A stretch of DNA of 64,000 nucleotides. Source: Alphaproteobacteria bacterium (GTDB lineage Bacteria; Pseudomonadota; Alphaproteobacteria; CAAGCB01; CAG-977). Positions 4,918 through 57,268 of the stretch are shown here, piece after piece (position 1 is the first letter of the stretch; every line of letters starts with the position of its first letter). The translations under genes and the position numbers were made by a program. The notes beneath the pieces are model-generated. The model ran no database searches and had not been told where the DNA came from. It saw only the letters and a program-made list of their open reading frames with translations. The DNA lies in NCBI GenBank assembly GCA_900768875.1, contig CAAGEP010000003.1:333298-397297 (forward strand). The letters are read 5' to 3'.

Positions 4918-5789
4918 TTAAAAACAACGGTGCGGCGACCGTTCAGCAAAATGCGTCTTTCCGTATGATAGCGCACGGCGCGCGCCAAAACAATGTTTTC
5001 CAAATCCTTGCCGACGGCAATCAGTTTTGCGGGTGTAAATGTATGATCAACGCGCTCGACCGCCTGTTCGATAATCGGACCTTCGTCCAAATCGGCGGTA
5101 ACATAGTGCGCCGTCGCGCCAATCAGCTTGACCCCGCGTTCATAGGCTTGGTGGTACGGTTTTGCGCCCTTGAAGCTGGGCAGGAACGAATGGTGGATAT
5201 TGATGCAATGCCCCTGCAGCGCGCGGCACATATCGTCGGACAAAATCTGCATATAACGCGCCAAAACAACCAAATCGACGCGCAAATCGGCGGCAAGCTG
5301 CAAAATCTTGTTTTCCTGCGCGCGCTTAGCTTCAAAGCTTGATCCCGCGGGCAAAGGCAGATAATGATACGGAATTTTGTTCCATTCGACGAATTCGCGC
5401 ATATCTTCGTGATTGGAAACGACGCCCGCAATATCGACGTTCAAAAGCCCCGTCCGCCACCGCTGCAGCAAGTCGTTCAAACAATGGCTTTCTTTGGACA
5501 CCAGCAGCAGCAAACGCGCGGGACGGTCGCCGTTGTGCAGCTTCCAGTCCATTTTGTATTCCGCCGCCAAAGGCTTGAACGATTCCCGCAAAACAGGACG
5601 CATGCTTTCCGCCGTGTCCGTCGTGAACACAATGCGCATAAAGAACAAACGGCTGAGTTCGTCGCCGAACTGCGCGGCTTCTTTGACAAAGCCGCCTTCC
5701 GCCGCGATTTTGGAAAAAACACGCGCGGCAATGCCCGTTCTGTCGGGACAGCTGAGGGTTAAAATATGCGTTTCCAAAGCCATTTTCAT
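4914..5789 (-). CDS. purU: formyltetrahydrofolate deformylase
   Basis: 291 aa; N-terminal ACT domain plus formyltransferase core (HHSFLP...DEGPII). Confidence 0.8.
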   Translation of the reverse strand: MKMALETHILTLSCPDRTGIAARVFSKIAAEGGFVKEAAQFGDELSRLFFMRIVFTTDTAESMRPVLRESFKPLAAEYKMDWKLHNGDRPARLLLLVSKESHCLNDLLQRWRTGLLNVDIAGVVSNHEDMREFVEWNKIPYHYLPLPAGSSFEAKRAQENKILQLAADLRVDLVVLARYMQILSDDMCRALQGHCINIHHSFLPSFKGAKPYHQAYERGVKLIGATAHYVTADLDEGPIIEQAVERVDHTFTPAKLIAVGKDLENIVLARAVRYHTERRILLNGRRTVVFK

Positions 5790-5802
5790 CTAATCCTTTT
5801 TA

Positions 5803-8800
5803 TCAAGAAGTTTTTACATCATTTTGATTTTCAACGGCAATGTGCGCAATTTTTGTCATCAATTTGCGCATACCGCGAATACGGTCTTTCGGCGTTTCCC
5901 AATCTCTGATGCACACGATTTTCTGATCGGGACGCAATTTCGCCGCGCCGCGGTTTTGGGCGATAAAGGTAACCAATCCCGCGGGATTCGGAAAGCGGTT
6001 GTCGCGCAAAGTCAGCACCGCCCCTTTGGGGCCGGCTTCGATTTTTTCGACGTTGGCTTTGCGGCACAAAACCTTGATAGCGATGATTTCCAGCAAGTTT
6101 TCGACTTCGGGAGGCAAAGGACCAAACCTGTCCGCCAATTCGGCGGCAAACCCGTCGATTTCATCCGGTTCCTGCACCTCCGCCAGTCGTTTGTACAGTC
6201 CCATGCGCACGCCCAAATCGCGCACATAGCTTTCGGGAATAAGAACGGGCATACCTGCGGAAATCTGCGGCGACCAATCGGATTCTTCGTCCGTTTCCGC
6301 CTCGCCCGCACGGGCTTGAGCGACCGCTTCCTCCAGCATTTTTTGATAAAGCTCGATACCGACTTCGCGGATATGTCCCGACTGTTCTTCGCCCAGCAGA
6401 TTGCCCGCCCCGCGAATGTCCAAGTCATAACTGGCAAGCGTGAAGCCCGCCCCCAGCGTATCCAGCTTTTGCATAACTTCCATACGCTTCAGCGCGGTTT
6501 TGTTGACCGAACGGTTCGACGGCAAAGTCAGATACGCGTAGCCGCGCGTTTTGCCGCGTCCGACGCGCCCGCGCAGCTGATACAACTGCGCCAAGCCGAA
6601 CATATCCGCGCGGTGAATGATTATCGTGTTGACCGACGGCATGTCCAGCCCCGATTCAATAATCGTCGTGGACAGCAAAACATCGTACTTTTTATCCGCA
6701 AAAGCGGTCATAATGTCTTCCAGTTCCGTCGGCGTCATCCTGCCGTGAGCGGCGACCACGCGGATTTCGGGAACAAGCACGTCCAGTTTTCTTTTGACTT
6801 CGTCCATATCGGCGATGCGAGGGAAAACATAGAACGTCTGACCGCCGCGCATGCGTTCGCGCATCAAAGCTTCGCGGATAATCACGGGATCGAACGGCAA
6901 AACGAACGTGCGTACCGCCAAACGATCGACGGGCGGCGTTGCGATGATGCTCAGCTCCCTCACCCCCGTCAGCGCCATTTGCAAAGTGCGCGGAATGGGT
7001 GTTGCCGTCAAAGTCAAAACGTGAACGTTGGCTTTCAGCTGTTTCAAGCGTTCCTTGTGCGCGACGCCGAAATGCTGTTCTTCGTCCACAATCAGCAGTC
7101 CCAAGTTCGCAAAGCGGATATTCTTGGACAGCAAAGCGTGCGTCCCGACCACAATGTCGATTTTGCCCTCCTCAAGTTCTTTTTTGGTCTGCGCCGTCGT
7201 TTTGGCGTTGACCAAGCGCGACAGCTGAGCCAGCCGCAGCGGAAATCCCGCCAAGCGCGCTTTGAACGTTTCATAGTGCTGGCGGGCAAGCAAAGTGGTC
7301 GGCACGACAACGGCGACCTGCGCCCCGTTCATCGCCGCCGCAAACGCCGCGCGCAAAGCGACTTCGGTTTTGCCGAAGCCGACATCGCCGCACACCAGCC
7401 TGTCCATGGGACGACCTTCGGACAAATCGGACAGCACGTCTTGAATGCTTTTTTCCTGATCTTCCGTTTCGGCATAAGGGAAACGCGCGCAAAAATCATC
7501 GTAAACGCCTTCGGGCACGGGCAGACGCTCCGCTTTGCGCAAGTGGCGTTCAGCCGCAACTTTTATCAAAGCGTCCGCCATGTCGCGAATACGCTTTTTC
7601 AGCTTCGCCTTGCGCGCCTGCCACGCGTGACCGCCCAGCTTGTCCAGCACGGCGGTGGCTTGGTCGGAGCCGTAACGGGACAGCACTTCGATGTTTTCGA
7701 CGGGAACGAACAGCTTGTCGTCGTCGGCGTACACCAAGCACACACAGTCGTGCGGCGCCCCGCCGACCTGCAAAGTCCTCAAGCCTTCGTACCGCCCGAT
7801 GCCGTGGTCGATATGGACGACCAAATCGCCCTCGTTCAACGCGGACACATCGGAAATGAATTGGTCTCCGCGCCGCTTTTTGCGCACGGGACGCGCCAAA
7901 CGGTCGCCGAAAATATCGGCTTCGGACAATACGGTGCAAGAATCCGTCTTAAAGCCCTCGGTCAGCGGCAATACCGCAAACGCCGTGCCGTCCCTGACTG
8001 CCAAAGCTTGCGCCCAAGAATCGACTTCGACCGTCGGCGCGCCGCGCTCCTTCAGCAAACCTGCGATTCTGGAGCGGGAACCGCTTGTAAAAGCGGTCAA
8101 TATCACGTTTCTTTTCGCCAGACGCTCCGCAACAATGAACTTTCGCACCGCGTCGTAAATATCGATTTCGGGCAAAGCGCGTTCGGCGGAAAAATCCTTG
8201 CCGTTTCTGCCGCCCATATCTTGCGCGGGCAATTCGCCGTCGTAATCGGGCGCGGCAAACGGAAACAATCGGTAAACCGCACGGGGACGCAGTAAAGATT
8301 GAAGCTCGTCCGCGCTTACAAACATCCGTTCGACGGGAACGGGATGATAAATCATGCCGCTTTCGCTCAATCCGTTTTTTTCCGCGTCCAAGCGGGCGTT
8401 ATAAAACTCGTCGATTTGCTCCAAGCGGGCTTTGACGGCTTCGTCCGCCTGATATTCCCAAACGACGACTGCGTCGGGAACAAAAGCAAACAAAGTATCC
8501 ATTCCGTCGTGAAACAAAGGAAGCCAATGCTCCATGCCTTGGAAACGGCGGTGTTCGGAAATGCTTTCGTATAAAATATCGTTCGTCCCCGCGCCGAACA
8601 GCTCGCGGTATCGAGTTCTGAAGCGCGACACGGATTCGTCATCCAGCGCGACTTCGCTGACGGGACGGAACACAAAGCGGGGCAACGCGCCGCTGGTGCG
8701 CTGAGTCATCGGGTCGAACGTGCGGATGCTTTCCAGTTCGTCGCCGAACAAATCAAGGCGTAAAGGCTCTGCCGTACCGGGAGCGAACACATCGACAATG

Positions 8801-15886: not shown

Positions 15887-16365
15887 CTGCGTTAAAGAAA
15901 ACCAATGCCATGCGCCTGTTGGAACAGGCTAAAGTGCCTTTTGAATTTTACGAATACGAAACGACTGACGGAAAAATCGATGCCAAATCCGTCGCCGCCA
16001 AAATCGGACAAGCCCCCGAACAGGTGTTCAAAACGCTTGTGACTCAATCGCCGACGCACGAACACTTTGTTTTTGTCGTTCCGTCTATCGGCGAATTGGA
16101 CTTGAAAAAAGCCGCCAAGGCCGCAGGACAAAAAAGCATCGAGATGATAGCCCAAAAACAGCTGTTGCCGTTGACGGGATACGTTCACGGCGGATGTTCG
16201 CCCGTCGGCATGAAAAAGCCGTTTCCGACGTTCATCGACGAAACGGCTCTGCTGTACGACAAATTCTGCATCAGCGCGGGCAAAGTCGGCGTGAACTTGA
16301 GCTTAGCCCCGCAGGACGTCGCCGCGTATTTAGACGCTCAGTTTGTCGATTTGCTCAAAGGCTGA
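15883..16365 (+). CDS. ybaK: Cys-tRNA(Pro)/Cys-tRNA(Cys) deacylase YbaK family
   Basis: 160 aa; YbaK/ProX deacylase fold signature (HGGCSPVG). Confidence 0.75.
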   Translation: MTALKKTNAMRLLEQAKVPFEFYEYETTDGKIDAKSVAAKIGQAPEQVFKTLVTQSPTHEHFVFVVPSIGELDLKKAAKAAGQKSIEMIAQKQLLPLTGYVHGGCSPVGMKKPFPTFIDETALLYDKFCISAGKVGVNLSLAPQDVAAYLDAQFVDLLKG

Positions 16366-18731
16366 ACATATTCACGCACAATATCGGGTGTCGTCCACGG
16401 TCCTATAACGGACGGCAATACCTTTCCCGCCGGCGTTTTCGGTGAAAACAGCAGGTTTGCGGGCAGAAAATCCTTGCCTGTATTTTGCATAATCCGCCGC
16501 ACGAACGGATGTGTGTACGGAATTCCCATAACAATCAAACGACCGTCCGTAATGGCTTTCGCGCCGCCGCGGTACATAACCATCAGTCTGTTGATTTGAC
16601 AAATCAAACATCCGCTTTCCGTAACATTCAGATACACCGATTTTCCTTCGTCAACGGATCGGACGATTTCTTTTTCGTCAAACGGCCGCGCGCCGAGCGT
16701 GTTAAAGTCGTAACCGTTCGGCACAACAGGCAAAGCCAACAACCCTGCAACCGCCACGCCTGTCACAACCTTGCTTCTGTGGAAACGAAAGAAGCTCAGC
16801 ATTGCTAAAACGGAAAACATCACAAAAACAGCCATTCTGAGCCAGCCGCTTTGCAAACCGATTAACACCGTCAACAGCACGACTTGAACGACCAAAGGCA
16901 ACAGCATAAAGCCTTTCAGCGAACGGCACGGCTTTCCGTCCGTATCCGCAGACAAACCGTCAAACAACACCAGTATGATAAACACACCAAAGATTGCAAA
17001 CAAAAACAGCGGTATATAAACAAACGGGGATTGACTTATCAAAGAACGGAACTCGTAGCCCAATGAAATCAACGGCGTTGCCGTCAGCAGACCGCCACAC
17101 AGCAATCCTGCCAAAAGCCCCGCTTTTTCATTAACGTTAAAACGGTTCATTCCTTTGATTTGAGCGACAAAATTTTCATCAAACAACTTGGGAACGATAG
17201 CGCAGGCACAAAAAAACAGCAAAACAAACATCCCGTTTATCAAAGGCGAGGCAAATTGCATCCCCCAATAAAACGATTGAGGCAAAGCCATTCCGACAAC
17301 CGTCAAAACCGCATAAACCGGCAGTAAAATTTTCAAACTTTCCGCCAACCCGTCAAAAAACGCATCCGTTTTTTCAACAGATCTGTTTTTATCGTTCAAA
17401 ATCAAATAAGCCAGCATTAACAAAGCCGTCAGCAACGGTGTCAAAAGCAAAAACTTGATTCCCAAAATCAATGCGGAAATGCAACCGGAAAAAGTGGTTG
17501 TAAAACTATTGAATCCGATTCCGCCGACGGGAATGTCCATCGTAATTTCATCGGATTTGACAGCGTTGAAAAACGTCAATGTCAGCGGAATTTTTTCCTT
17601 GCCCTGTATTTTTTCCGGATTTTTCAAGCGAATTCGGTAAAGAACGCTTCCCCCTTCACTGCCCGTAAACGAATCGTCAAAGTGCAGACCTTTCGTATTT
17701 GTTATCATCAGTTGGGGGGTGTCCGAAAAAGAAAACGGCTTTTTGACGCGAACGGTCAAATCCGTTTTGCCGTCTTCCGTTTTGAAAAACGCATCCGTTA
17801 CATTGATTCCCGCCGCGCGGTTTGCCGGTGCGTTATAGCGCGTTCGGGTCAGTTCCGTACAGACGGAAGATTCCAAATAAGCGGGCTCTACGGTGTATTC
17901 AACGGACGGGAAAGTTTCAACGGCGCATTTTCCGTTGCGGCACACATTTGCGCTGACAACGGCGCGAATAACAGGCTTTTTGCCGTTTTTAATCTTGACC
18001 GTAAACGGCAGAACCGCTTCTGTTACATAACCGACCCCGTTGAATTCCGGCAAAAAATGCTGCAACGGATAGGACAAGGCACCGATATCGACATTTTCCG
18101 AACCGGAAAAGTCCACCGTTACAGGTGTTTTGATTTCACCTTCCTTTTGCTGTAGAATTACAGCGGATTTATCCAGCAAAATCATTGCGCCCATCAAGAT
18201 TTCGGGTTTGTTTTGCGTTCTGGCGCAGGAAGCCAGCATAACTGCGCCCGATTCCGTGTACACCGCGTCCGAAAAGAATTTTTCTTTGGAAAAATCGGAA
18301 AAGTAATCGTGAATGGTGCGATCGCCGATTGCAACATATTGAAAGTTTTTCCATGTTGACGAATCATCGTAATCAATCAGCAAATCGGAACGCCCCGGAT
18401 TTTGTTTTTCGATATCCCTGTTAATGCCTTCAATCAAATGACGGACATAACTTTCCATACTTTTGATTTTTGACGAAAGCCTTGCCAAAGTTTGAAATTT
18501 TGCGTCATTTTGAATCTCGTCGATTTTGACGATTTCATTGATGATTTCACCGTCCGTCGCTCCGATTGCTTTGTTTTTTTTATAAAAATCCAGCAAAAAC
18601 TTCAGTTTGTCTCCGCTGTCCAAGCTTTTGTATTCTTTCAAATCGCCCTGCGTAAACGGAATGACGTCGGCAACGGCGGCATTTGAAAAAACAATCAGCC
18701 ACGCAAAAAAAACAAAGCGAAACATTTTCAT
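16338..18731 (-). CDS. thiol:disulfide interchange protein DsbD/ScsB family with enlarged N-terminal periplasmic domain
   Basis: 797 aa; signal peptide, ~400-aa periplasmic N-domain, multi-TM core, C-terminal thioredoxin-like domain with a CLIC (CxxC) motif. Confidence 0.6.
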   Translation of the reverse strand: MKMFRFVFFAWLIVFSNAAVADVIPFTQGDLKEYKSLDSGDKLKFLLDFYKKNKAIGATDGEIINEIVKIDEIQNDAKFQTLARLSSKIKSMESYVRHLIEGINRDIEKQNPGRSDLLIDYDDSSTWKNFQYVAIGDRTIHDYFSDFSKEKFFSDAVYTESGAVMLASCARTQNKPEILMGAMILLDKSAVILQQKEGEIKTPVTVDFSGSENVDIGALSYPLQHFLPEFNGVGYVTEAVLPFTVKIKNGKKPVIRAVVSANVCRNGKCAVETFPSVEYTVEPAYLESSVCTELTRTRYNAPANRAAGINVTDAFFKTEDGKTDLTVRVKKPFSFSDTPQLMITNTKGLHFDDSFTGSEGGSVLYRIRLKNPEKIQGKEKIPLTLTFFNAVKSDEITMDIPVGGIGFNSFTTTFSGCISALILGIKFLLLTPLLTALLMLAYLILNDKNRSVEKTDAFFDGLAESLKILLPVYAVLTVVGMALPQSFYWGMQFASPLINGMFVLLFFCACAIVPKLFDENFVAQIKGMNRFNVNEKAGLLAGLLCGGLLTATPLISLGYEFRSLISQSPFVYIPLFLFAIFGVFIILVLFDGLSADTDGKPCRSLKGFMLLPLVVQVVLLTVLIGLQSGWLRMAVFVMFSVLAMLSFFRFHRSKVVTGVAVAGLLALPVVPNGYDFNTLGARPFDEKEIVRSVDEGKSVYLNVTESGCLICQINRLMVMYRGGAKAITDGRLIVMGIPYTHPFVRRIMQNTGKDFLPANLLFSPKTPAGKVLPSVIGPWTTPDIVREYVQPLSKSTN

Positions 18732-32483: not shown

Positions 32484-35400
32484 ATGAAATTGTCAAAATC
32501 CGCAGCGGGCATATTGTCCGCACGTTACAAATCGGTTTTAATCAAATGTTTGCTGGCGAATTTGATGTTGTTTTCCCTGCCCGCCGCCGCGGCGGAAACA
32601 ATTCCAAACGAAACGTATGCAAATAAAACTTTTGATTCTCCCTCCGACGGTTCTTATCTGATTGAGGGTGGCACGTTTGAAAAATCGCATATTAGAGCAT
32701 CCGACGACATTACAGTATCGGGCGGAACGTTCACGGGATCAGGGCTTTATGCAGACAACAACATTAACATATCAGGCGGAACGTTTACGAATTCAGGGCC
32801 TCTGGCGGACAACGACATTACAATATCGGACGGAACGTTTACGAAATCAGGGCTTTATGCAGGTTACAACATTAATATATCAGGCGGAAATTTTACAGAT
32901 TCGAGTTTCAGTGCAAGAAGACTCATCATTAACGGCGGCAAGATTGAAGGAACACTGAGTGTTGATAGACATCCCGATATATCGATTGATTCTGATGCCG
33001 CTGTTGTCAATCTGACATGGGATAAAAATTCAGCACCCCCTCCGTCTTCAATCACAGCAGACTCTTTGAACATTACGGGCGAGCACGGGATTTCTGTTTC
33101 AAACACCGCCTTTGATTCATGGAATACTTCGGGAAAAATAACGGCGAACAGCAATTCGCTTTTGGGACAATTTTGGGAAACCGGTGATTATGTTTACCAC
33201 ATTGGCGGAAAAACGTTGCACACCGCTGCCGCCGCTTCCTCTTCTTCTTACAACGATACGCAACTAACTGCTTTTTCAGACGCAACCATCGTTTTAAACG
33301 GCGATTCTGTTGCCGGCAGCGGGTATTATTCCATGTCATCCGATGTTGTTGCATCTATGCCTCCGCCGCCTGCTCTGGGATCACTTCAGCCATACAGCGT
33401 TGAAGGACAAACCGCCGATAATGCCCCGCTTCAAATTTTGCGCAAAGAATTGACGCCGGATGAAATCAACACTGCCATAAATTTCATCTGGAACGATGTG
33501 AACAACGCCAACGATGAAAATGACTTGACGGACTTTACAAAAGCTGTTCTTGGCTCAATCCTTTCAGGTTCTAATGCTCCTCCTCCTTCTATAACGGACA
33601 TAAAAGAACACGAAACTGATTTTAAAACCCTATTAACAGAACATTACGCCAACTTCAATTCATTTTTAAAAGCAACACCGAACACCAACGTGATCATTTC
33701 CGCATCAACGTTTGAATTAAACGACAACGCGAAGCTGATTAACGACAGCTTTTCGTCGGATTATCACGAAGCCGGTCCCGAATCCTTTCCCACAGGAAGT
33801 ATCACCACCTTTGGAGCGGGCAACATAACTGTAAAAGACTCAACCGTTATCGCCAAAGCCAACAACGAACTGTCCGCCCGTTCCGGCAATGTCATATTTC
33901 AAAATTCAACGTTGAAAGTCGCCGAAAACGCCGTTTTGACCTTTTCGTCCGCAGGCGGCGCGCTGTTGCTGGACAGCGGATCGGAGCTTTATTTGGCGGG
34001 GAAAATGAAGGGCAACGTCTTTTCCGACGAGGATGCGGCAGTCATTTTTGAATCGTCGAACGCGCGGCTGGACGGCACTTTGTCGGGGGCGGCGAACGCC
34101 GTCTTTAACGCCGATTACGCGTTAAGCAATCTGAACCGTTCAAATAATTTTGAATTCCGCAACATCGCCATTATGGACGGCAAAACGCTGGACATCGGAA
34201 CAACCGCGCTGAAAGCCGACAAAATATCGGGCGGGACGATTTCGGCGATTTTGACCGATGCCGCCAAAACAACGCCAATCATTACCGCTGCCGCCGAAAA
34301 CGTCACGATTAAATTGGATATGAGCGCGGCTTCTTCCACCCAAACAACGCTGTATCACATTACGAAAGAAACGGGGTTCAAGTTAAGCGATTATTCAACG
34401 TCCCGCTATGCCGTTTCTTCGCGTCCCTTTGACGTTGCCGACGCTTCGAAAGTCGGCGTTTTAAGCAACTGGAACGGCGGGGATTTGTACATTTTGCGCT
34501 TGGGCAATTCGACCCCCTCCATTGTTGACGATGTGAAACAAAGCGGCATTACCGTTAATCCCGTCATTGAAAAAGCATTGGGCATTATTGATCTGGATGA
34601 CGAATCTTTGGGCAAATTGACCGATGAACAGCAAAAAGCTTTGGATAAAATTGACGACTTGCTGACGAAATTCGACCGCAACCCCGAAAAGAAATACCAA
34701 GTTTTGCGCGAAGTCGCGCCAAGCTTGTCTAAATTCAACATCCTTGTCGATGAAACAACCGCCAAAAACGTCATCAACGTTGTTTCCTCACGGTTCAACT
34801 TGCCGAATTCACCGCACATTCCGCGCAGCTACAGATTATACGGACGTTCCGGCGGCAATTATGAAGCGGGGAACAGCACCGTTTGGGCGCAAGGCATGTA
34901 TAACCATGCGGAACAAAGCGGAACAGAGGGCTTTTCATCCAATTCGGCAGGATTTACGGCGGGTATCGAAACATGGCTGTCCGACGATTTCAAAGCGGGT
35001 GTCGGATACTCTTATACCTCAACATCCGTTGATTCGGACAGATCCGACGTTGATGTTTATACACACACCGGCTTTTTGTACGCTCAATATCAGCCAAAAC
35101 GTTTTTACACAAACTTTTTTGCGGGCTTCGGTCATTCGGCCTATACAGACACGACAAAAATCGCAAAATTGGAAAGTGAATACAAAACAAACACGGCCAG
35201 CGCGCAAATTGCAATCGGATATGCCGTGCCTGTGTTGGCTCCCGAAGTCGCCGTGCGCGTCATCAATACACACAAAAAAGCCTACACCGACGCTTTGGGG
35301 GTTGAACTGAAAAGCAAGGACAGCACCACCGCTACCGCTGTCGGCGGCCTCAAACTGTCAAAACATTACAGGATGCGGACAAATTCCGCCGTCGTGTTTA

Positions 35401-35648
35401 CGCCGGAACTGAAAGCCGCCGCCACATACGATTTCGTCCGCACCAACAGCGACAGAACCGCATTGCTGCCCAACGGCACAAGCTATATCGTCCAAACGGA
35501 AAACGATAAACGTTTCGGTATTGAAGCCGGCGCGGGATTTTCGTTCGATTTCGGGAAAAACGGCACAGTGTCGCTTCTGTATGACGGGATGTTCCAAGGG
35601 AAATTAAACAGCCATTCCGCCGTGCTGAATGTAAAAATCAATCTGTAA
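32484..35648 (+). CDS. autotransporter (type Va) with beta-helical repeat passenger and C-terminal beta-barrel translocator
   Basis: 1054 aa; long signal peptide (MKLSKSAAGILSARYKSVLIKCLLANLMLFSLPAAAAE), tandem ISGGTFTxSG repeats, conserved linker, ~280-aa C-terminal barrel with aromatic-rich strands; paralogous to 45426..48764. Confidence 0.8.
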   Translation: MKLSKSAAGILSARYKSVLIKCLLANLMLFSLPAAAAETIPNETYANKTFDSPSDGSYLIEGGTFEKSHIRASDDITVSGGTFTGSGLYADNNINISGGTFTNSGPLADNDITISDGTFTKSGLYAGYNINISGGNFTDSSFSARRLIINGGKIEGTLSVDRHPDISIDSDAAVVNLTWDKNSAPPPSSITADSLNITGEHGISVSNTAFDSWNTSGKITANSNSLLGQFWETGDYVYHIGGKTLHTAAAASSSSYNDTQLTAFSDATIVLNGDSVAGSGYYSMSSDVVASMPPPPALGSLQPYSVEGQTADNAPLQILRKELTPDEINTAINFIWNDVNNANDENDLTDFTKAVLGSILSGSNAPPPSITDIKEHETDFKTLLTEHYANFNSFLKATPNTNVIISASTFELNDNAKLINDSFSSDYHEAGPESFPTGSITTFGAGNITVKDSTVIAKANNELSARSGNVIFQNSTLKVAENAVLTFSSAGGALLLDSGSELYLAGKMKGNVFSDEDAAVIFESSNARLDGTLSGAANAVFNADYALSNLNRSNNFEFRNIAIMDGKTLDIGTTALKADKISGGTISAILTDAAKTTPIITAAAENVTIKLDMSAASSTQTTLYHITKETGFKLSDYSTSRYAVSSRPFDVADASKVGVLSNWNGGDLYILRLGNSTPSIVDDVKQSGITVNPVIEKALGIIDLDDESLGKLTDEQQKALDKIDDLLTKFDRNPEKKYQVLREVAPSLSKFNILVDETTAKNVINVVSSRFNLPNSPHIPRSYRLYGRSGGNYEAGNSTVWAQGMYNHAEQSGTEGFSSNSAGFTAGIETWLSDDFKAGVGYSYTSTSVDSDRSDVDVYTHTGFLYAQYQPKRFYTNFFAGFGHSAYTDTTKIAKLESEYKTNTASAQIAIGYAVPVLAPEVAVRVINTHKKAYTDALGVELKSKDSTTATAVGGLKLSKHYRMRTNSAVVFTPELKAAATYDFVRTNSDRTALLPNGTSYIVQTENDKRFGIEAGAGFSFDFGKNGTVSLLYDGMFQGKLNSHSAVLNVKINL

Positions 35649-48830: not shown

Positions 48831-50861
48831 CTATTTATTTTTTTTCAACGGCAGCGGCGCGACGGAAACCCGTTCGGGGAAAACGTCAATCAATCTGACG
48901 TTTTGATTGTTTTTGCACACTTCGTCCGCCGTGCATTTTTGAATGACGGTTACACGCGAATCCCGCTCCGCCCCGCGCATATCCATAATCGTTCGGTAGC
49001 CGCGCACGACTTGAACGGTCATGACGACATAAGCGGACATTTTCTTTTTGTTGCGGGCGGAAATCTTGATTTCGTAGAATCCTTCCGACGTTGCAGGCGG
49101 CTTGCCGGACAGCGTAATCGTTTTGGAATCAAAGAACATCCACGGCGGCAACGGTGATCCGTCTATCAAAGTCGCCGTATACGCCACATTATGCCCTAAA
49201 TCCGCTTCGGCAAAAACAGTCGGCGGGATGGTTGCGACGAAACGGGAATCTTCGACCACTTTTTTCATCGGAAGCGTTACGTTCAAAAACACGGGCGGAC
49301 GGTGCATCGGCACAGGCGGCAACTTAGGCGCGTCTTCATTGGTAAAGCGTCCGATGTCCCACGCCCCCATGACGCGTTCCAACGCCGCGGCAATCGTATT
49401 CAAATCGTTTGATGCGAAACCTTCGGGCAACGCGTCCAGCCCCAGAGTCGCAAACATCGTTCCCGTCGCGTCCTGCAATTCGGCAAAGTTCATCGCCATA
49501 CGCAATTTCGCAAACAGCGCGCGCGCCGCAGACGCCACTGTTACGGCTTGAGCCATTTCTTCAAAGTCGTCCGCATTGGCTTCGGCGCTTTTTTGCGCCA
49601 ACAGTTCGGCCACGTTTGAAATTTCAACACTCAGCTGGTAAGTTTCTTTCGCGCCTTGATACCGCGCCCATCCCAAATGAGTCTGCGTCAAAACAGCCAT
49701 GGCGATAACCTGCCGGTTCAAGTTGTCTACGGCCTCCTTGACTTCGGATGTAGTTACCGTTTGCTGCATTTTTATCGGATTCAACAGATTAAAGCCGACT
49801 TGCGCCGCCGCCTGCATCCACGACGAATTGGACAAATACGAATTACTGTCATAATTGGCGGATGCGAACAAATTCAAATTCGGCAACAGTTTCACCAGTG
49901 CTTTTTTGGCTTCCAAACGGGTATTTTGCAATTTATAATCTTCGGCGCGCAACTCGGGTCGGTTCATCAGAGCCAGCCATTCCAACCTGTCCAGATTGGA
50001 ACGGATTTCAGGCAAAACATAATTTCCCTCTTCCGACGCAACCAAACGGAAGCGCGTTCCGGGCTTCAAGTTAATTAAAGCAGCCAGCTTCTCGCGCGCC
50101 ATTTGCAATTCTTTTTTCATTTCGCTTAAATCGCGCATCGTTTCCATCAGCGACATCTGATAAGTCAGCGCCTGCGTGTTCTTTTCCCCTTTGCCGGAAC
50201 GCAGAATTTCCAGAACAGCGGTGGCTTCCTCCATCAAATCGTCGATTTCCGGCATCAGCCGTTCCGCGGCAATCGCGCGCCAAAAGGCTTCGCGCACGTC
50301 CTGCAGCAAAGACTGTACCTGCTTGCGGCGTTCTTCCTTGGAAATCAAAACTTTGTTCATATCCTGCCGCGCCTGATAATAGCTGACACCGAAATCAAGG
50401 ATGTTCCACGACACTTGGATATCCGCAAATCCGTGCGTTTTTTCACCGTACGCCGTCGGATCGGACAAAACCCCCGTTTTCATGGATTTCGACACAACCG
50501 CTTCGTAATTGCTGCGGCCGGAATATCCGGCGTTTGCGGCGATTTGAGGAAGCATATCCACGGAATTCAAATTCAGCTGCTTGACGGTCAAAGCGGTTTC
50601 CATCATTTTCAATCTGGAGCCCAGATTGTATTTCAGCGCGCGCGCCATGGCATCGTACAAGGTCATCGGTTTGAAAACGACATCGGTTCGCTGATCGGCA
50701 AACATTTCTTGAATGTCGCGATCGACGCGGACGGCGCGCTCCCAATCACTCAAAGGCCGAGGCTCGACCGTACAGGCGGCGGCAAAAACCAGCGTCATCC
50801 CTGCCGTCAGAAAAGACGTTCTTTTCCACAATTTCTTTTGTTTTGCAAAGAGGTCTTTCAT
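48831..50861 (-). CDS. TolC-family outer-membrane efflux lipoprotein (NodT/OprM-like) with extra C-terminal Ig-like (cadherin/dystroglycan-type) domain
   Basis: 676 aa; lipobox LVFAAAC; two OEP repeats (...LYDAMARALKYNLGSRLKMME...VSWNILDFGVSYYQARQ...); ~180-aa C-terminal extension with a He_PIG-like segment (AYTATLIDGSPLPPWMFFDSKTITLSGKPPATSEGFYEIKISARN). Confidence 0.65.
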   Translation of the reverse strand: MKDLFAKQKKLWKRTSFLTAGMTLVFAAACTVEPRPLSDWERAVRVDRDIQEMFADQRTDVVFKPMTLYDAMARALKYNLGSRLKMMETALTVKQLNLNSVDMLPQIAANAGYSGRSNYEAVVSKSMKTGVLSDPTAYGEKTHGFADIQVSWNILDFGVSYYQARQDMNKVLISKEERRKQVQSLLQDVREAFWRAIAAERLMPEIDDLMEEATAVLEILRSGKGEKNTQALTYQMSLMETMRDLSEMKKELQMAREKLAALINLKPGTRFRLVASEEGNYVLPEIRSNLDRLEWLALMNRPELRAEDYKLQNTRLEAKKALVKLLPNLNLFASANYDSNSYLSNSSWMQAAAQVGFNLLNPIKMQQTVTTSEVKEAVDNLNRQVIAMAVLTQTHLGWARYQGAKETYQLSVEISNVAELLAQKSAEANADDFEEMAQAVTVASAARALFAKLRMAMNFAELQDATGTMFATLGLDALPEGFASNDLNTIAAALERVMGAWDIGRFTNEDAPKLPPVPMHRPPVFLNVTLPMKKVVEDSRFVATIPPTVFAEADLGHNVAYTATLIDGSPLPPWMFFDSKTITLSGKPPATSEGFYEIKISARNKKKMSAYVVMTVQVVRGYRTIMDMRGAERDSRVTVIQKCTADEVCKNNQNVRLIDVFPERVSVAPLPLKKNK

Positions 50862-51775
50862 TTTTTACCTTCCCGTTCCACAACGCCGCGTATCAGTTTC
50901 AGCAAACGCTTTTGTTCCGATTGTTTTTCGCTTTGAATTTTCGCCGAAAAATCGGACGAGTCAAGCCCCAAATCCAGTTTCACCCAATCCGCGGCGTCCT
51001 GCGCCGAAATTTCAACTGCCGTATTCAAATCCGTCAAATCGCTCACAAGCAGACTAAAAACCGTTTCATCGTAGTTTTTCAACACATTCGCAAGGGCGGT
51101 TTCCGGAAAATATCGGTCGGGATTGGCGGCATAACCGTCCAAAACATCGTTTTTCTGTTCAGCCAGCGCCGCTTCGACTTTTTTGTCATACGGACGCATG
51201 GCGGCATCCAGCTGGGCAAACACAATGTCAATCAAAGCCAACCCTGTTCTGCCGCGATTGAAATCGGCCATTGCATCGACGTCGCGCACCATTTCCTTTT
51301 TGCTTTCATAGTCAAGCGTCATATTGGTCACATCCAAATCCGCGCGATCGATTTGTTTGATAAAATCCACGGCCTGCGCATCCAGCTCCGGATAAGCGGA
51401 CGATGAAAAATCGGCAATAAAATCAACGCCTTGGTTTGTATCCCGTTTTGCATCCGCGAATTCAAAATTACGTTCAATGGCATCAACTTTCCAAAAATGG
51501 GCATCAGCCTGTATTTCCTCGTTTTGAACGGGGACATCGTAATCCCATAAATAATAAGCCAAATCGTCCCCGATTGCCCCCGACCGCCACACTTCGCGAA
51601 TAGGCAGACTTTGCAAATAAGGGCGCGTTAAAATCTTGTCTAAAGCGTATGCGTTGTCGTTCGGATACAAAAACACGCCTTTTTGTTCGGCACAGACGCT
51701 CCGGCCAGACAAGACCGCCGCTAAAAAAGCGATTGTTTTTATACATTTGCAAACTTTTTTCAAAGCGGCCGCCAT
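50858..51775 (-). CDS. secreted hypothetical protein, translationally coupled to TolC-like gene
   Basis: 305 aa; signal peptide (IAFLAAVLSGRSVCA); acidic; ATGA overlap with the downstream TolC-family gene. Confidence 0.45.
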   Translation of the reverse strand: MAAALKKVCKCIKTIAFLAAVLSGRSVCAEQKGVFLYPNDNAYALDKILTRPYLQSLPIREVWRSGAIGDDLAYYLWDYDVPVQNEEIQADAHFWKVDAIERNFEFADAKRDTNQGVDFIADFSSSAYPELDAQAVDFIKQIDRADLDVTNMTLDYESKKEMVRDVDAMADFNRGRTGLALIDIVFAQLDAAMRPYDKKVEAALAEQKNDVLDGYAANPDRYFPETALANVLKNYDETVFSLLVSDLTDLNTAVEISAQDAADWVKLDLGLDSSDFSAKIQSEKQSEQKRLLKLIRGVVEREGKK

Positions 51776-51898
51776 AGATTGTTTATCCGATTTGTTTATT
51801 TTGCAGGAAAAAAGCTAAAAAAGTCTAAAGAAAACAAATGACTTTGCGGCTTAAAACAGGTATATTCCGTGCAGATATCAATCAAACAGGAGGTTTCC

Positions 51899-53095
51899 AT
51901 GACTCAAACGGCTCCGCGCGGGGAACGGCTGAATATCGGGCTGTTCGGACGCAGAAACGCGGGAAAATCGTCCCTTTTGAACGCTTTGTGCGGACAGGAA
52001 GTTTCCATTGTTTCCGCCGTCGCGGGAACGACAACCGACGCCGTATCCAAAATTTACGAGCTCATCCCCGTTGGTCCCGTTACATTCTTTGACACGGCGG
52101 GCGTGGACGACAAGGGCGAAGTCGGACAAAAACGCGTGGATGCCACCATGCGCGTTATGAAAAAAGTCGACATCGCCATGGTCATCACCGACGAAACGGG
52201 CGTCGGAGCAGAGGAAGACACTCTTATCAAAGAATTGAAAGAACTGAACGTTCCCTTTGTCGTTGTGTTTAACAAATGCGACAAAGTCAACATCACGGGC
52301 TACGGTTTCGATTTCCCGACGATTTCCGTTTCCGCCAAAGACGGCGCGAATATCGAGGAATTGAAAGCTTTGCTGAAAAGCCTTGTCCCCGAATCCTTTA
52401 AAAAGCGTCCGCCTTTGGTCGCCGACTTAATCAAAGCTGGCGACACGGTCGTTTGCATTGCCCCGATTGACGCTTCCGCGCCGAAAGGACGCTTGATTTT
52501 ACCGCAAGTCCAAGTCATCCGCGACATTCTGGACACGGGCGCGTATGCTTACACCGTGCAGAATCAAAACGATTACAAAGCGGTCGAAGCCAACTTGAAA
52601 ACTCCGCCGGCTTTGGTGATTACGGATTCCCAGCTTATCCGCGCGGTTGCCGAAACCGTGCCGCAAACGGTGCCGCTGACGACATTTTCAACGCTTTTCG
52701 CCCGTTATAAAGGCGACTTTGAAACGCTGTTGCACGGCGCGCGGAAATTGCAGCAGCTGACAGACGATAGTCGCGTTTTAATTGCGGAAGCCTGCTCCCA
52801 CCACGTCCAAGACGACGACATCGCCCGCGTTAAAATGCCCGCTTTGATTCAAAAAGCATGCGCGGGAAAAATTGATTTCAACTGGTGCGCGGGCGTTGAT
52901 TTTCCCGACGATTTGGGCGATTACGATTTGGTCGTGCATTGCGGCGGGTGCATGCTGACGCGGCAGGAAACCCTGCGCCGTTTGAACGAGTGCGTACGGT
53001 CGAATGTTCCCGTAACCAACTTCGGCATGGCGTTATCGGCGGTTCAAGGCGTTCTTGACCGTGTAACCGCGCCGTTTTTCGGGACAAGCAAATGA
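51899..53095 (+). CDS. hydF: [FeFe]-hydrogenase H-cluster maturation GTPase HydF
   Basis: ~398 aa from MTQTAPRGERLNIGLFGRRNAGKSSLLNAL (AGGAGG RBS); GTPase G1-G4 motifs, C-terminal CxH...CxxC Fe-S ligands (EACSHH...HCGGC). Confidence 0.8.
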   Translation: MTQTAPRGERLNIGLFGRRNAGKSSLLNALCGQEVSIVSAVAGTTTDAVSKIYELIPVGPVTFFDTAGVDDKGEVGQKRVDATMRVMKKVDIAMVITDETGVGAEEDTLIKELKELNVPFVVVFNKCDKVNITGYGFDFPTISVSAKDGANIEELKALLKSLVPESFKKRPPLVADLIKAGDTVVCIAPIDASAPKGRLILPQVQVIRDILDTGAYAYTVQNQNDYKAVEANLKTPPALVITDSQLIRAVAETVPQTVPLTTFSTLFARYKGDFETLLHGARKLQQLTDDSRVLIAEACSHHVQDDDIARVKMPALIQKACAGKIDFNWCAGVDFPDDLGDYDLVVHCGGCMLTRQETLRRLNECVRSNVPVTNFGMALSAVQGVLDRVTAPFFGTSK

Positions 53096-56587: not shown

Positions 56588-57268
56588 CTACACAATTCCG
56601 AACAGCGCAACAAAGAAAGACAACATCCCTTTGACGGCAAAAGCCAAATACCGTCCGACAATATCCAAATCAACGCCGATTTCATCGCCCAGCAGCGGCA
56701 AACCGATAAGCAAAACCACCATCACGGGCAACCCGTATTTTTCCGTTCCCGCAAACCGCACCGCGGCGGGAAGCGGCAGCAATCCCGTCAAAATCCGCCC
56801 GCCGTCCATCGGCAAAACAGGCAGCAGATTGAATATCATCACCGAAAAATTAAACACGGCGGTCTGCGACAGGAAAAATACGGCAGGCTTGCTGAACACG
56901 TCGGCGTGCGCCATAACGGCAAGGACGCCCAAAGCCAGCAACCCCAAAACAAAATTGGTCGCAGGCCCCGCCAAAGCGACCCAAACCATATCTTTTTTGG
57001 GATTTTTCAGCGCGCTGAAGTTCACGGGAACGGGCTTTGCCCATCCGAACAAAAACGGCGCGTTGGACAAGAACAGCAACAACGGAAAAACAATCGTGCC
57101 GAACACATCGACATGACGCAAAGGGTTCACGCTCAGTCTGCCGTTGTCTTTTGCCGTTGTGTCGCCGAAAAAACAAGCGACTACGCCGTGCGCGATTTCA
57201 TGCAGCAGCACGGCGGGAACAACCGCCAAAACCATCAACAGCAAATAAAGCGTTTTGTCGTCAGGCAT
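56588..57268 (-). CDS. site-2 protease family (M50) zinc metalloprotease
   Basis: 226 aa; HEIAHG (HExxH) in TM1, multi-TM. Confidence 0.7.
   Translation of the reverse strand: MPDDKTLYLLLMVLAVVPAVLLHEIAHGVVACFFGDTTAKDNGRLSVNPLRHVDVFGTIVFPLLLFLSNAPFLFGWAKPVPVNFSALKNPKKDMVWVALAGPATNFVLGLLALGVLAVMAHADVFSKPAVFFLSQTAVFNFSVMIFNLLPVLPMDGGRILTGLLPLPAAVRFAGTEKYGLPVMVVLLIGLPLLGDEIGVDLDIVGRYLAFAVKGMLSFFVALFGIV

Follow-up and report, generated by a model that had tools for sequence, protein, structure and literature searches.

CvaAB-TolC and the PCAT-type ABC transporters are leader-cleaving exporters of bacteriocins and peptides. LapA with LapBCE is a type I secretion system (T1SS) for a giant adhesin of the RTX/Bap type, which has a C-terminal secretion signal and an ABC transporter. 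The enterotoxin STII, a small peptide, crosses the inner membrane through Sec and then leaves the cell through MacAB-TolC. Domains of the He_PIG/dystroglycan type usually occur in tandem in extracellular adhesins. Here we describe a two-gene locus in a 64,000-nucleotide stretch of contig CAAGEP010000003.1 from an alphaproteobacterium; this whole stretch is referred to as the window. The locus encodes a TolC-family protein that ends in an immunoglobulin (Ig)-like domain (TolC-He_PIG) and, directly upstream, an acidic secreted protein (the partner). Our reading, held with modest confidence, is that this pair is probably the outer-membrane half and the cargo left from a five-part export locus.

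In a number of related loci (related loci are denoted here by L and a number), a putative cargo gene lies beside a cassette of four genes that encode a TolC-family protein, two adaptors and a fusion of an M50 peptidase domain to a HlyD-like domain (M50::HlyD). Among known systems this ancestral cassette would be most like the leader-cleaving HlyD/TolC peptide exporters, by analogy of parts: an N-terminal leader on the cargo, a membrane protease, HlyD-type adaptors and a TolC duct. It differs from CvaAB-TolC and PCAT in that the protease-like domain is of the M50/site-2-protease type and fused to a HlyD-like domain, rather than a C39 domain on an ABC transporter. Moreover, no ATPase gene was seen in the cassette loci, the cargo is often giant, and the window itself is without this machinery. 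With LapA-LapBCE the cassette shares giant repetitive proteins with cadherin, Ig or RTX domains, encoded beside a dedicated TolC-like gene, but its signal-like motif is N-terminal and its inner-membrane component is M50::HlyD. The window pair is not a classical T1SS, since no ABC exporter or HlyD gene was found in the window and the putative cargo has no C-terminal signal and instead an N-terminal Sec signal. The route suggested for the partner, through Sec and then from the periplasm through TolC, is that of STII, although the window cargo has a mass of ~30 kDa and is without a known adaptor or pump.

A structural precedent exists for the extra domain. Escherichia coli YbjP sits on the outside of TolC in the periplasm, in the zone that separates the equatorial domain from the membrane (PMC13082787; PDB 9tg4, 9v52), and TolC-He_PIG would likewise carry an additional globular module on that surface. 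YbjP, however, is not part of the TolC chain but a DUF3828 lipoprotein whose fold is alpha/beta, whereas the window module is Ig-like and fused in cis, and no homology was found between the two. In the literature searched we found no description of the cassette, the M50::HlyD fusion, the leader, the function of DUF4347 or a C-terminal Ig extension on TolC, which is not proof of novelty. By itself, the fusion of a TolC to an Ig domain is only mildly surprising; the main interest of the locus lies in the cassette, its leader and the exchange of this leader for a Sec signal.

Partner, channel and cassette genes in related loci

An orthologue of the partner stands directly upstream of TolC-He_PIG in all loci with a TolC identity of ~63% or higher. 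In a sister clade of gut Alphaproteobacteria (L032-L035, L040 and L043) the operon continues, in the order partner, TolC-He_PIG, a membrane fusion protein (MFP), a second such protein (MFP2) and M50::HlyD. The sister-clade partner is 370-428 residues long as called and has no Sec signal. Near its N-terminus it carries the sequence ..L(M/A)(A/V)LEPR(Y/H)M(Y/F)DAAG(I/V)AALDE, the same leader as that of the giant proteins encoded at related cassettes. In the clade of the window, every partner has in place of this leader a signal peptide with n-, h- and c-regions and without a lipobox. Over their mature cores the long partners can be aligned with the short ones, window NAYALDKILTRPYLQ with L032 SVYALSGAFSRPLLQ and onward. 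The leader is thus present in 6/6 distinct cassette-bearing gut loci and in 0 of ~20 cassette-less loci; nor is it present in the window, where no LEPR-type motif occurs in any frame.

MFP, MFP2 and M50::HlyD are absent from the window and from all loci of its clade, with up to 10 kb read downstream, and tblastn detected no cassette-type MFP or M50::HlyD in the 64 kb. The two clades share their synteny, with HydF on one side and PNT, GGDEF and Suf genes further on, and deletion of the three cassette genes in situ is therefore the simplest account. The original prediction had noted that no cognate pump is encoded in cis. This holds for the window, where no pump was found among the large open reading frames (ORFs) scanned, the small ones being only partly covered by Pfam, but it does not hold as the original state, given that the sister-clade loci have MFP, MFP2 and M50::HlyD directly downstream. 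A search for M50::HlyD homologues and four context readings yielded only cassette-linked copies from other lineages and none from the window species. When the window was examined for three features of the cassette, an orthologous TolC was found, but neither adjacent MFP, MFP2 and M50::HlyD genes nor a leader-bearing cargo. Because two of the three are lacking, we file the window pair as a derived remnant and not as a member.

L036 has a second OEP-family gene (5129-7048; 639 aa, 33% identical to the window TolC) ~1.4 kb upstream of TolC-He_PIG, and a 260-aa ORF between these two genes gives a weak partner-like match. In distant lineages one to three paralogues of DUF6782, a putative metallopeptidase, lie within a few kb of TolC-He_PIG (L007 4016-6696; L032 5486-6652; L040 13-3996; L043 1608-4127; weaker in L015, L022-L025 and L028-L030), and no DUF6782 gene was detected in the window. 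DUF6782 was rejected as a part of the cassette, because its presence does not track that of the cassette.

The four-gene cassette and the leader of its cargo proteins

The closest non-fusion matches to the window TolC are TolC-family proteins of ~500 aa, with 36-40% identity over the whole core. The OEP proteins linked to cassettes in L001, L038, L041 and L042 share 30-38% identity with the window TolC over its whole core (E 1e-64 to 1e-108); for the cassette-linked He_PIG forms the identity is 65%. The cassette comprises TolC, an MFP of ~260 aa, a HlyD-like MFP2 of ~450 aa with one transmembrane helix, and M50::HlyD of ~700 aa, whose N-terminal half is an M50/site-2-protease-like membrane domain and whose C-terminal half is HlyD-like. 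It turned up in every context read for these non-fusion TolC proteins, and was read in L001 (partly), L004, L038/L039, L041 and L042. A metagenomic set of 80 loci (L044-L123) was obtained with an M50::HlyD profile, and in 37 of these all four genes lie within the available DNA. No ABC, RND or MFS gene was seen in the cassette loci examined. In the M50 half, the HExxH and NxxPxxxxDG motifs are intact, and its match to the NCBIfam intramembrane protease for leaders of ribosomally synthesised and post-translationally modified peptides falls below the cut-off. Homologues of M50::HlyD are widespread and include proteins of Pectobacterium, Pseudomonas, Nitrospira and Methylobacter. Should this widespread combination of a TolC, two adaptors and M50::HlyD, which has no neighbouring ATPase gene, prove to be a secretion system, it would raise the questions of what powers it and how its leader is processed.

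The giant proteins encoded beside the cassette have DUF4347, PATR, Big_12, cadherin, He_PIG or RTX repeats. At their N-termini a basic stretch is followed by LPLEPRMMFDGAVAAT in L001 and by LSLESRLMFDAAAAAT in L041, and the consensus of the leader near the N-terminus is L-E-P/S-R-x-M/L-F/Y-D-G/A-A. A loose form of this pattern was scanned for in 1.01 Mb of the metagenomic set. It gave one match each in 19 of the 80 loci, 6-106 codons past the preceding stop (327 in one case) and in ORFs of 253 to >3167 codons; the chance expectation for the 1.01 Mb, by our own estimate from residue frequencies, is ~0.14 matches. The He_PIG module is also found on cargo. The last ~100 aa of the L038 giant (locus ~5650-5948), encoded upstream of a cassette TolC that has no Ig extension, are He_PIG-like (..DGEVLPSWLKFDANTSLLSGNAPAD..), and the L004 giant has He_PIG and cadherin domains. 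The module therefore recurs in this system, either on the cargo or on the channel.

The partner protein

The original prediction described the upstream gene product as a secreted acidic protein of unknown function. Its acidity (pI 4.4 for the mature part) and its predicted signal peptide stand, and its function is now best read as that of a cargo. The n-h-c features of the signal are present in all partner orthologues of the window clade, although the signal-peptide Cys is not conserved. The partner evolves rapidly: its rate of nonsynonymous substitution (dN) is 0.42-0.54, as against 0.05-0.07 for the TolC core (a 5- to 8-fold difference), and its ratio of nonsynonymous to synonymous rates (dN/dS, omega) is ~0.3. 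Strains with TolC proteins ~90% or more identical have partners that are only ~50% identical. A partner profile run against 1.84 billion representatives gave 26 matches, all of the same size class, so that there is no wider family to lend it a function. No RTX or HemolysinCabind match was found in the partner with Pfam.

Two candidate identities were discarded. The partner profile showed no homology to the giant cargo proteins, which rules out, as far as sequence tells, that the partner is a shrunken giant; and the match of the L002 partner orthologue to NheB (19.5 bits against an NCBIfam cut-off of 500) is noise.

Fast evolution and a tiny family are what one expects of a protein that is exported and exposed, and not of a machine part, and the sister-clade orthologues bear the N-terminal leader of the giants. 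On these features the partner is most likely cargo. The organisms are common uncultured Alphaproteobacteria of gut and rumen, and a fast-evolving exported protein may matter there for interactions with the host or with phages.

Architecture and conservation of TolC-He_PIG

The two reading frames of the original prediction, of 676 and 305 aa with an ATGA overlap, are exact, and the lipobox and two OEP repeats that it described are borne out by a conserved Cys30 and by Pfam. The N-terminus has a K/R-rich stretch and a hydrophobic segment followed by ..VFAAAC30, which fits the lipobox pattern, and Cys30 is invariant across 37 aligned homologues. By its lipobox and conserved +1 Cys, the window TolC fits a predicted lipoprotein outer-membrane factor (OMF) of the OprM/NodT-like kind. 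The OEP match covers two stretches (E=3e-22, 79.7 bits against a cut-off of 22). An AlphaFold2 (AF2) monomer, built on an alignment of homologues, has a mean pLDDT of 78.5. Along its chain a protomer of the TolC type is followed by a short helix at the equatorial level, the linker, a beta-sandwich (pLDDT >90), two strands and a disordered end. The core has the long alpha-hairpins and beta-strands of the protomers of trimeric alpha/beta-barrel OMFs, and Foldseek matched it in the PDB to SilC, OprM, CusC and TolC (E 1e-13 to 1e-11, target-normalised TM ~0.6). By its repeats and its fold, the protein belongs to the OMF superfamily. By sequence alone the only solved relatives found were an OprJ-like protein (E=5e-5) and dystroglycan (E=0.009). 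The NCBIfam model TIGR01844 (type_I_sec_TolC) scored 30.3 bits, below its cut-off of 225, and the window TolC is a divergent OMF subfamily rather than a canonical T1SS TolC. Compared with solved OMFs it has the same two OEP repeats, a lipobox as in OprM and CusC, and a matching monomer fold; it differs in its marginal sequence similarity, in its C-terminal extension and in having no adaptor or pump in cis.

The extension runs for ~176 aa past the core and consists of a linker, the He_PIG domain and a tail with a Cys loop. Residues 529-618 match He_PIG (Pfam PF05345) with E=1.1e-12 and 48.6 bits, against a gathering cut-off of 24, and Foldseek matched the C-terminal domain to the Ig-like domain of alpha-dystroglycan (E ~3e-5). 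The C-terminal Ig-like domain of the original prediction is therefore found as a folded beta-sandwich. In contrast to other PF05345 domains, it occurs as a single copy, joined to an OMF at its periplasmic end. The tail strands at ~621-641 have lower pLDDT, and the residues past 650 are disordered in the AF2 model.

The TolC-He_PIG architecture occurs in ~37 protein clusters, with identities down to 37%. The extension by itself, used to scan species-representative genomes, picked up 26 loci, all from metagenome-assembled genomes (MAGs) of gut or rumen Alphaproteobacteria, with one contig sitting in a bin labelled Limosilactobacillus. That contig (L012, CAVCSV010000004.1, labelled 'Limosilactobacillus gorillae') carries a partner and TolC-He_PIG locus with a TolC identity of 92%, and it is almost certainly mis-binned in a MAG of a Gram-positive organism. 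The order of the extension is fixed across the alignment: the linker comes first, then the Ig domain and last the tail. In the linker a Trp, a Gly, an Asp and three Pro are invariant, and in the tail C643 and C649 (window numbering) both are. Against orthologues, dN/dS is 0.03-0.13 for the TolC core, 0.03-0.2 for the linker and Ig domain (0.03-0.16 for the He_PIG domain of residues 529-620), and 0.02-0.36 for the tail. This strong purifying selection argues that the extension is a maintained functional part and not a drifting linker.

Position of the Ig-like domain

In siblings from the same subfamily, the place that He_PIG takes after the OEP repeats is filled by two or three SH3 domains or by a SPOR domain. 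SH3 and SPOR are families of cell-wall-binding domains. The C-terminus of solved OMFs lies in the equatorial domain, at the outer face of the periplasmic barrel. By analogy, the Ig domain should lie in the periplasm at the level of the TolC equatorial domain, which has itself been proposed to contact peptidoglycan (PMC13082787). The original prediction had placed the domain at or near the periplasmic entrance of the channel, a position that TolC topology and the SH3 and SPOR siblings do not bear out. The two conserved cysteines of the tail fit an oxidising periplasm. TolC-family ducts can then bear modular C-terminal domains in the periplasm, Ig-like here and SH3 or SPOR in siblings, which adds to the accessory partners known for the equatorial surface of TolC.

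The extension (Ig domain plus tail) has a pI of ~9.5 and a net charge of +2 to +8 in loci with a partner or a giant, and a net charge of ~0 in orphans without a partner. The net charge of the partner is -12 to -61 in most loci. A basic extension and acidic partners hint at docking between the two.

Proposed function and alternative explanations

In the ancestral cassette, the M50 domain would probably cleave the leader and the HlyD parts would bridge to TolC. In the window clade, the partner would be cargo that has been re-routed through Sec into the periplasm and that would still depend on TolC-He_PIG, either for a two-step exit through the channel or for retention at it. The linker, Ig domain and basic tail would hang from the equatorial domain of TolC in the periplasm, where the Ig module may dock acidic cargo, an adaptor or the cell wall, as the SH3 and SPOR modules would in sibling TolCs. 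The exchange of a leader for a Sec signal, with loss of three inner components, is a testable hypothesis on the parts needed for the outer-membrane step.

A stronger version of this proposal is rather doubtful. It would have the pair carry out an OMF-only second secretion step for a ~30-kDa protein delivered by Sec, with He_PIG and the basic tail as the receptor for this cargo in the periplasm. The pair would then descend from a secretion system that is undescribed and has no ABC transporter, and whose site-2-protease::HlyD fusion would recognise and cut the N-terminal LEPRxMFDGA leader of giant adhesins. If the OMF-only reading is true, the window clade is a natural experiment, in which a channel has shed its adaptors and its inner-membrane partner yet handles a protein.

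Several observations weigh against the pair being a channel with its own cargo. TolC-He_PIG occurs without a recognisable partner in L005, L007 and L037, and in L004 a giant is found in its place; its presence without a partner in these distant relatives indicates that the Ig domain is not partner-specific. The original prediction had itself considered that the extension might be a linker, widely present without a conserved partner. These four loci bear this out in part, but the extension is under purifying selection. The adjacency of partner and TolC is conserved within one clade, which also shares wider synteny, and the tie of the partner to the channel or to its Ig domain is inferred from sequence and gene context. 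The aperture of TolC is normally opened by an adaptor, and none is known for the window pair; MFP, M50::HlyD or other pumps may lie elsewhere in the genome, outside the 64-kb window. The Sec signal of the partner was judged by eye from its n-h-c features, its AF2 model (pLDDT 39, helices only) is too low in confidence for a claim about its fold, and a few partners are nearly charge-neutral.

The chief alternative is a real, if unlikely, possibility: that TolC-He_PIG is a general-purpose duct for unlinked ABC, RND or MFS pumps, with He_PIG as an anchor to the envelope or peptidoglycan. The partner would then be an accessory in the periplasm, a companion that acts in trans as YbjP does, or a co-transcribed protein with no relation to the duct. 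It is general knowledge that tolC genes are often unlinked to pumps. The strong purifying selection on TolC, the peptidoglycan-binding SH3 or SPOR modules at the same position in sibling TolCs and the lack of a partner in several lineages would all agree with such a duct, as would YbjP, an accessory bound to TolC between equatorial domain and membrane (PMC13082787; PDB 9tg4, 9v52). However, partner orthologues have a cargo-type leader and stand in the slot that the giant cargo genes take at several cassette loci. The partner also evolves 5-8 times faster than TolC, with alleles of ~50% identity in close strains, which would be unusual for a structural accessory, and elsewhere the subfamily goes with a single dedicated cassette.

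The original prediction also suggested a specialised, non-canonical apparatus for export or adhesion. Its export side is favoured by the cassette linkage, whereas display on the cell surface is highly improbable. He_PIG would in that case serve as an adhesin, the C-terminus having been passed outward through the lumen of TolC. Ig domains of the He_PIG and cadherin-like kinds are characteristic of adhesins at the cell surface, and they are present also in giants beside related cassettes (L004, and the C-terminus of the L038 giant). However, the linker of ~26 residues spans at most ~90 Å if extended. In published TolC geometry, the path from the equatorial domain via the periplasmic tip and out through the ~140-Å duct measures ~190 Å. 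The linker would thus be too short to let the Ig domain reach the cell surface through the duct. Three threaded tails would in addition obstruct the channel, the extension is under strong purifying selection, unlike the fast-evolving partner, and the equivalent extensions of siblings are the cell-wall-binding, periplasmic SH3 and SPOR domains.

That the pair is a decaying, functionless relic of cassette loss is likewise very improbable: three of the five ancestral genes are gone from the locus and the downstream region is a strain-variable island, but >20 species-level genomes, among which dS is saturated, have kept the two ORFs unbroken (with an omega of 0.03-0.13 for TolC and of ~0.3 for the partner), the ATGA coupling is kept, and the partner has gained a functional-looking Sec signal peptide.

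The operon and its surroundings

The features of the locus are collected in Table 1. The overlap of -4 between partner and TolC genes is kept in most partner-bearing loci from species-representative genomes. The hairpin between the TolC gene and its convergent neighbour is likely, from its sequence, to be a bidirectional terminator that closes the two-gene operon.

Table 1. Positions in the window of the features of the partner and TolC-He_PIG genes.
Feature	Position	Strand	Description	Basis
Partner gene	50858-51775	(-)	305 aa, acidic, upstream of TolC-He_PIG	
Partner signal peptide	51689..51775	(-)	Sec-type, residues 1-29, without lipobox; predicted cleavage ..SVCA|EQ	n-h-c features by eye
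Partner mature part	50861..51688	(-)	276 aa, acidic, predicted all-helical, putative cargo	pI 4.4; AF2; dN
Coupling junction	50858..50878	(-)	GGGAAGG Shine-Dalgarno and 4-nt ATGA start/stop overlap	sequence
TolC-He_PIG gene	48831-50861	(-)	676 aa, TolC-family lipoprotein	
TolC-He_PIG signal peptide	50775..50861	(-)	residues 1-29, lipobox ..VFAAA|C30	sequence; Cys invariant in 37 homologues
TolC/OMF core	49362..50774	(-)	residues 30-500, two OEP repeats	Pfam OEP x2; AF2; Foldseek
Pro-rich linker	49278..49361	(-)	residues 501-528, WDxGRFTNEDxPxLPPVPxxRPPV	extension alignment
He_PIG/dystroglycan-type Ig-like domain	49002..49277	(-)	residues 529-620, basic, pI 9.4	PF05345; AF2; Foldseek
C-terminal tail	48834..49001	(-)	residues 621-676; two extra strands, Cys643-x5-Cys649 loop, basic end	alignment; AF2
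Hairpin	48769..48802	.	15-bp stem, between the convergent TolC and autotransporter genes	sequence

The gene convergent with TolC-He_PIG encodes an autotransporter of 1112 aa (45426-48764, plus strand) and lies within a strain-variable island. In a comparison of L009-L011, strains with a 100%-identical TolC have at this site genes for a 431-aa unknown protein, a SHOCT protein and a DUF7424 protein. The autotransporter was rejected as a functional partner because strains with an identical TolC have other genes in its place. A second autotransporter of 1054 aa is encoded at 32484-35648.

A 226-aa peptidase of the M50 family is encoded at 56588-57268 (minus strand), adjoining tatA/B/C and 5.7 kb from the partner gene, a position that is kept in L002 and L009. 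It was considered as the missing protease and rejected, since it has no tblastn similarity to the M50 domain of M50::HlyD and is syntenic with tatABC.

Among the other genes of the window, a 797-aa ORF at 16338-18731 (minus strand) is without a Pfam match at E<=1e-5. A pyruvate:ferredoxin oxidoreductase is encoded at 40645-44199 (minus strand) and the [FeFe]-hydrogenase maturase HydF at 51869-53095 (plus strand). These two fit an anaerobic, fermentative alphaproteobacterium of the gut, which is unusual for the class.

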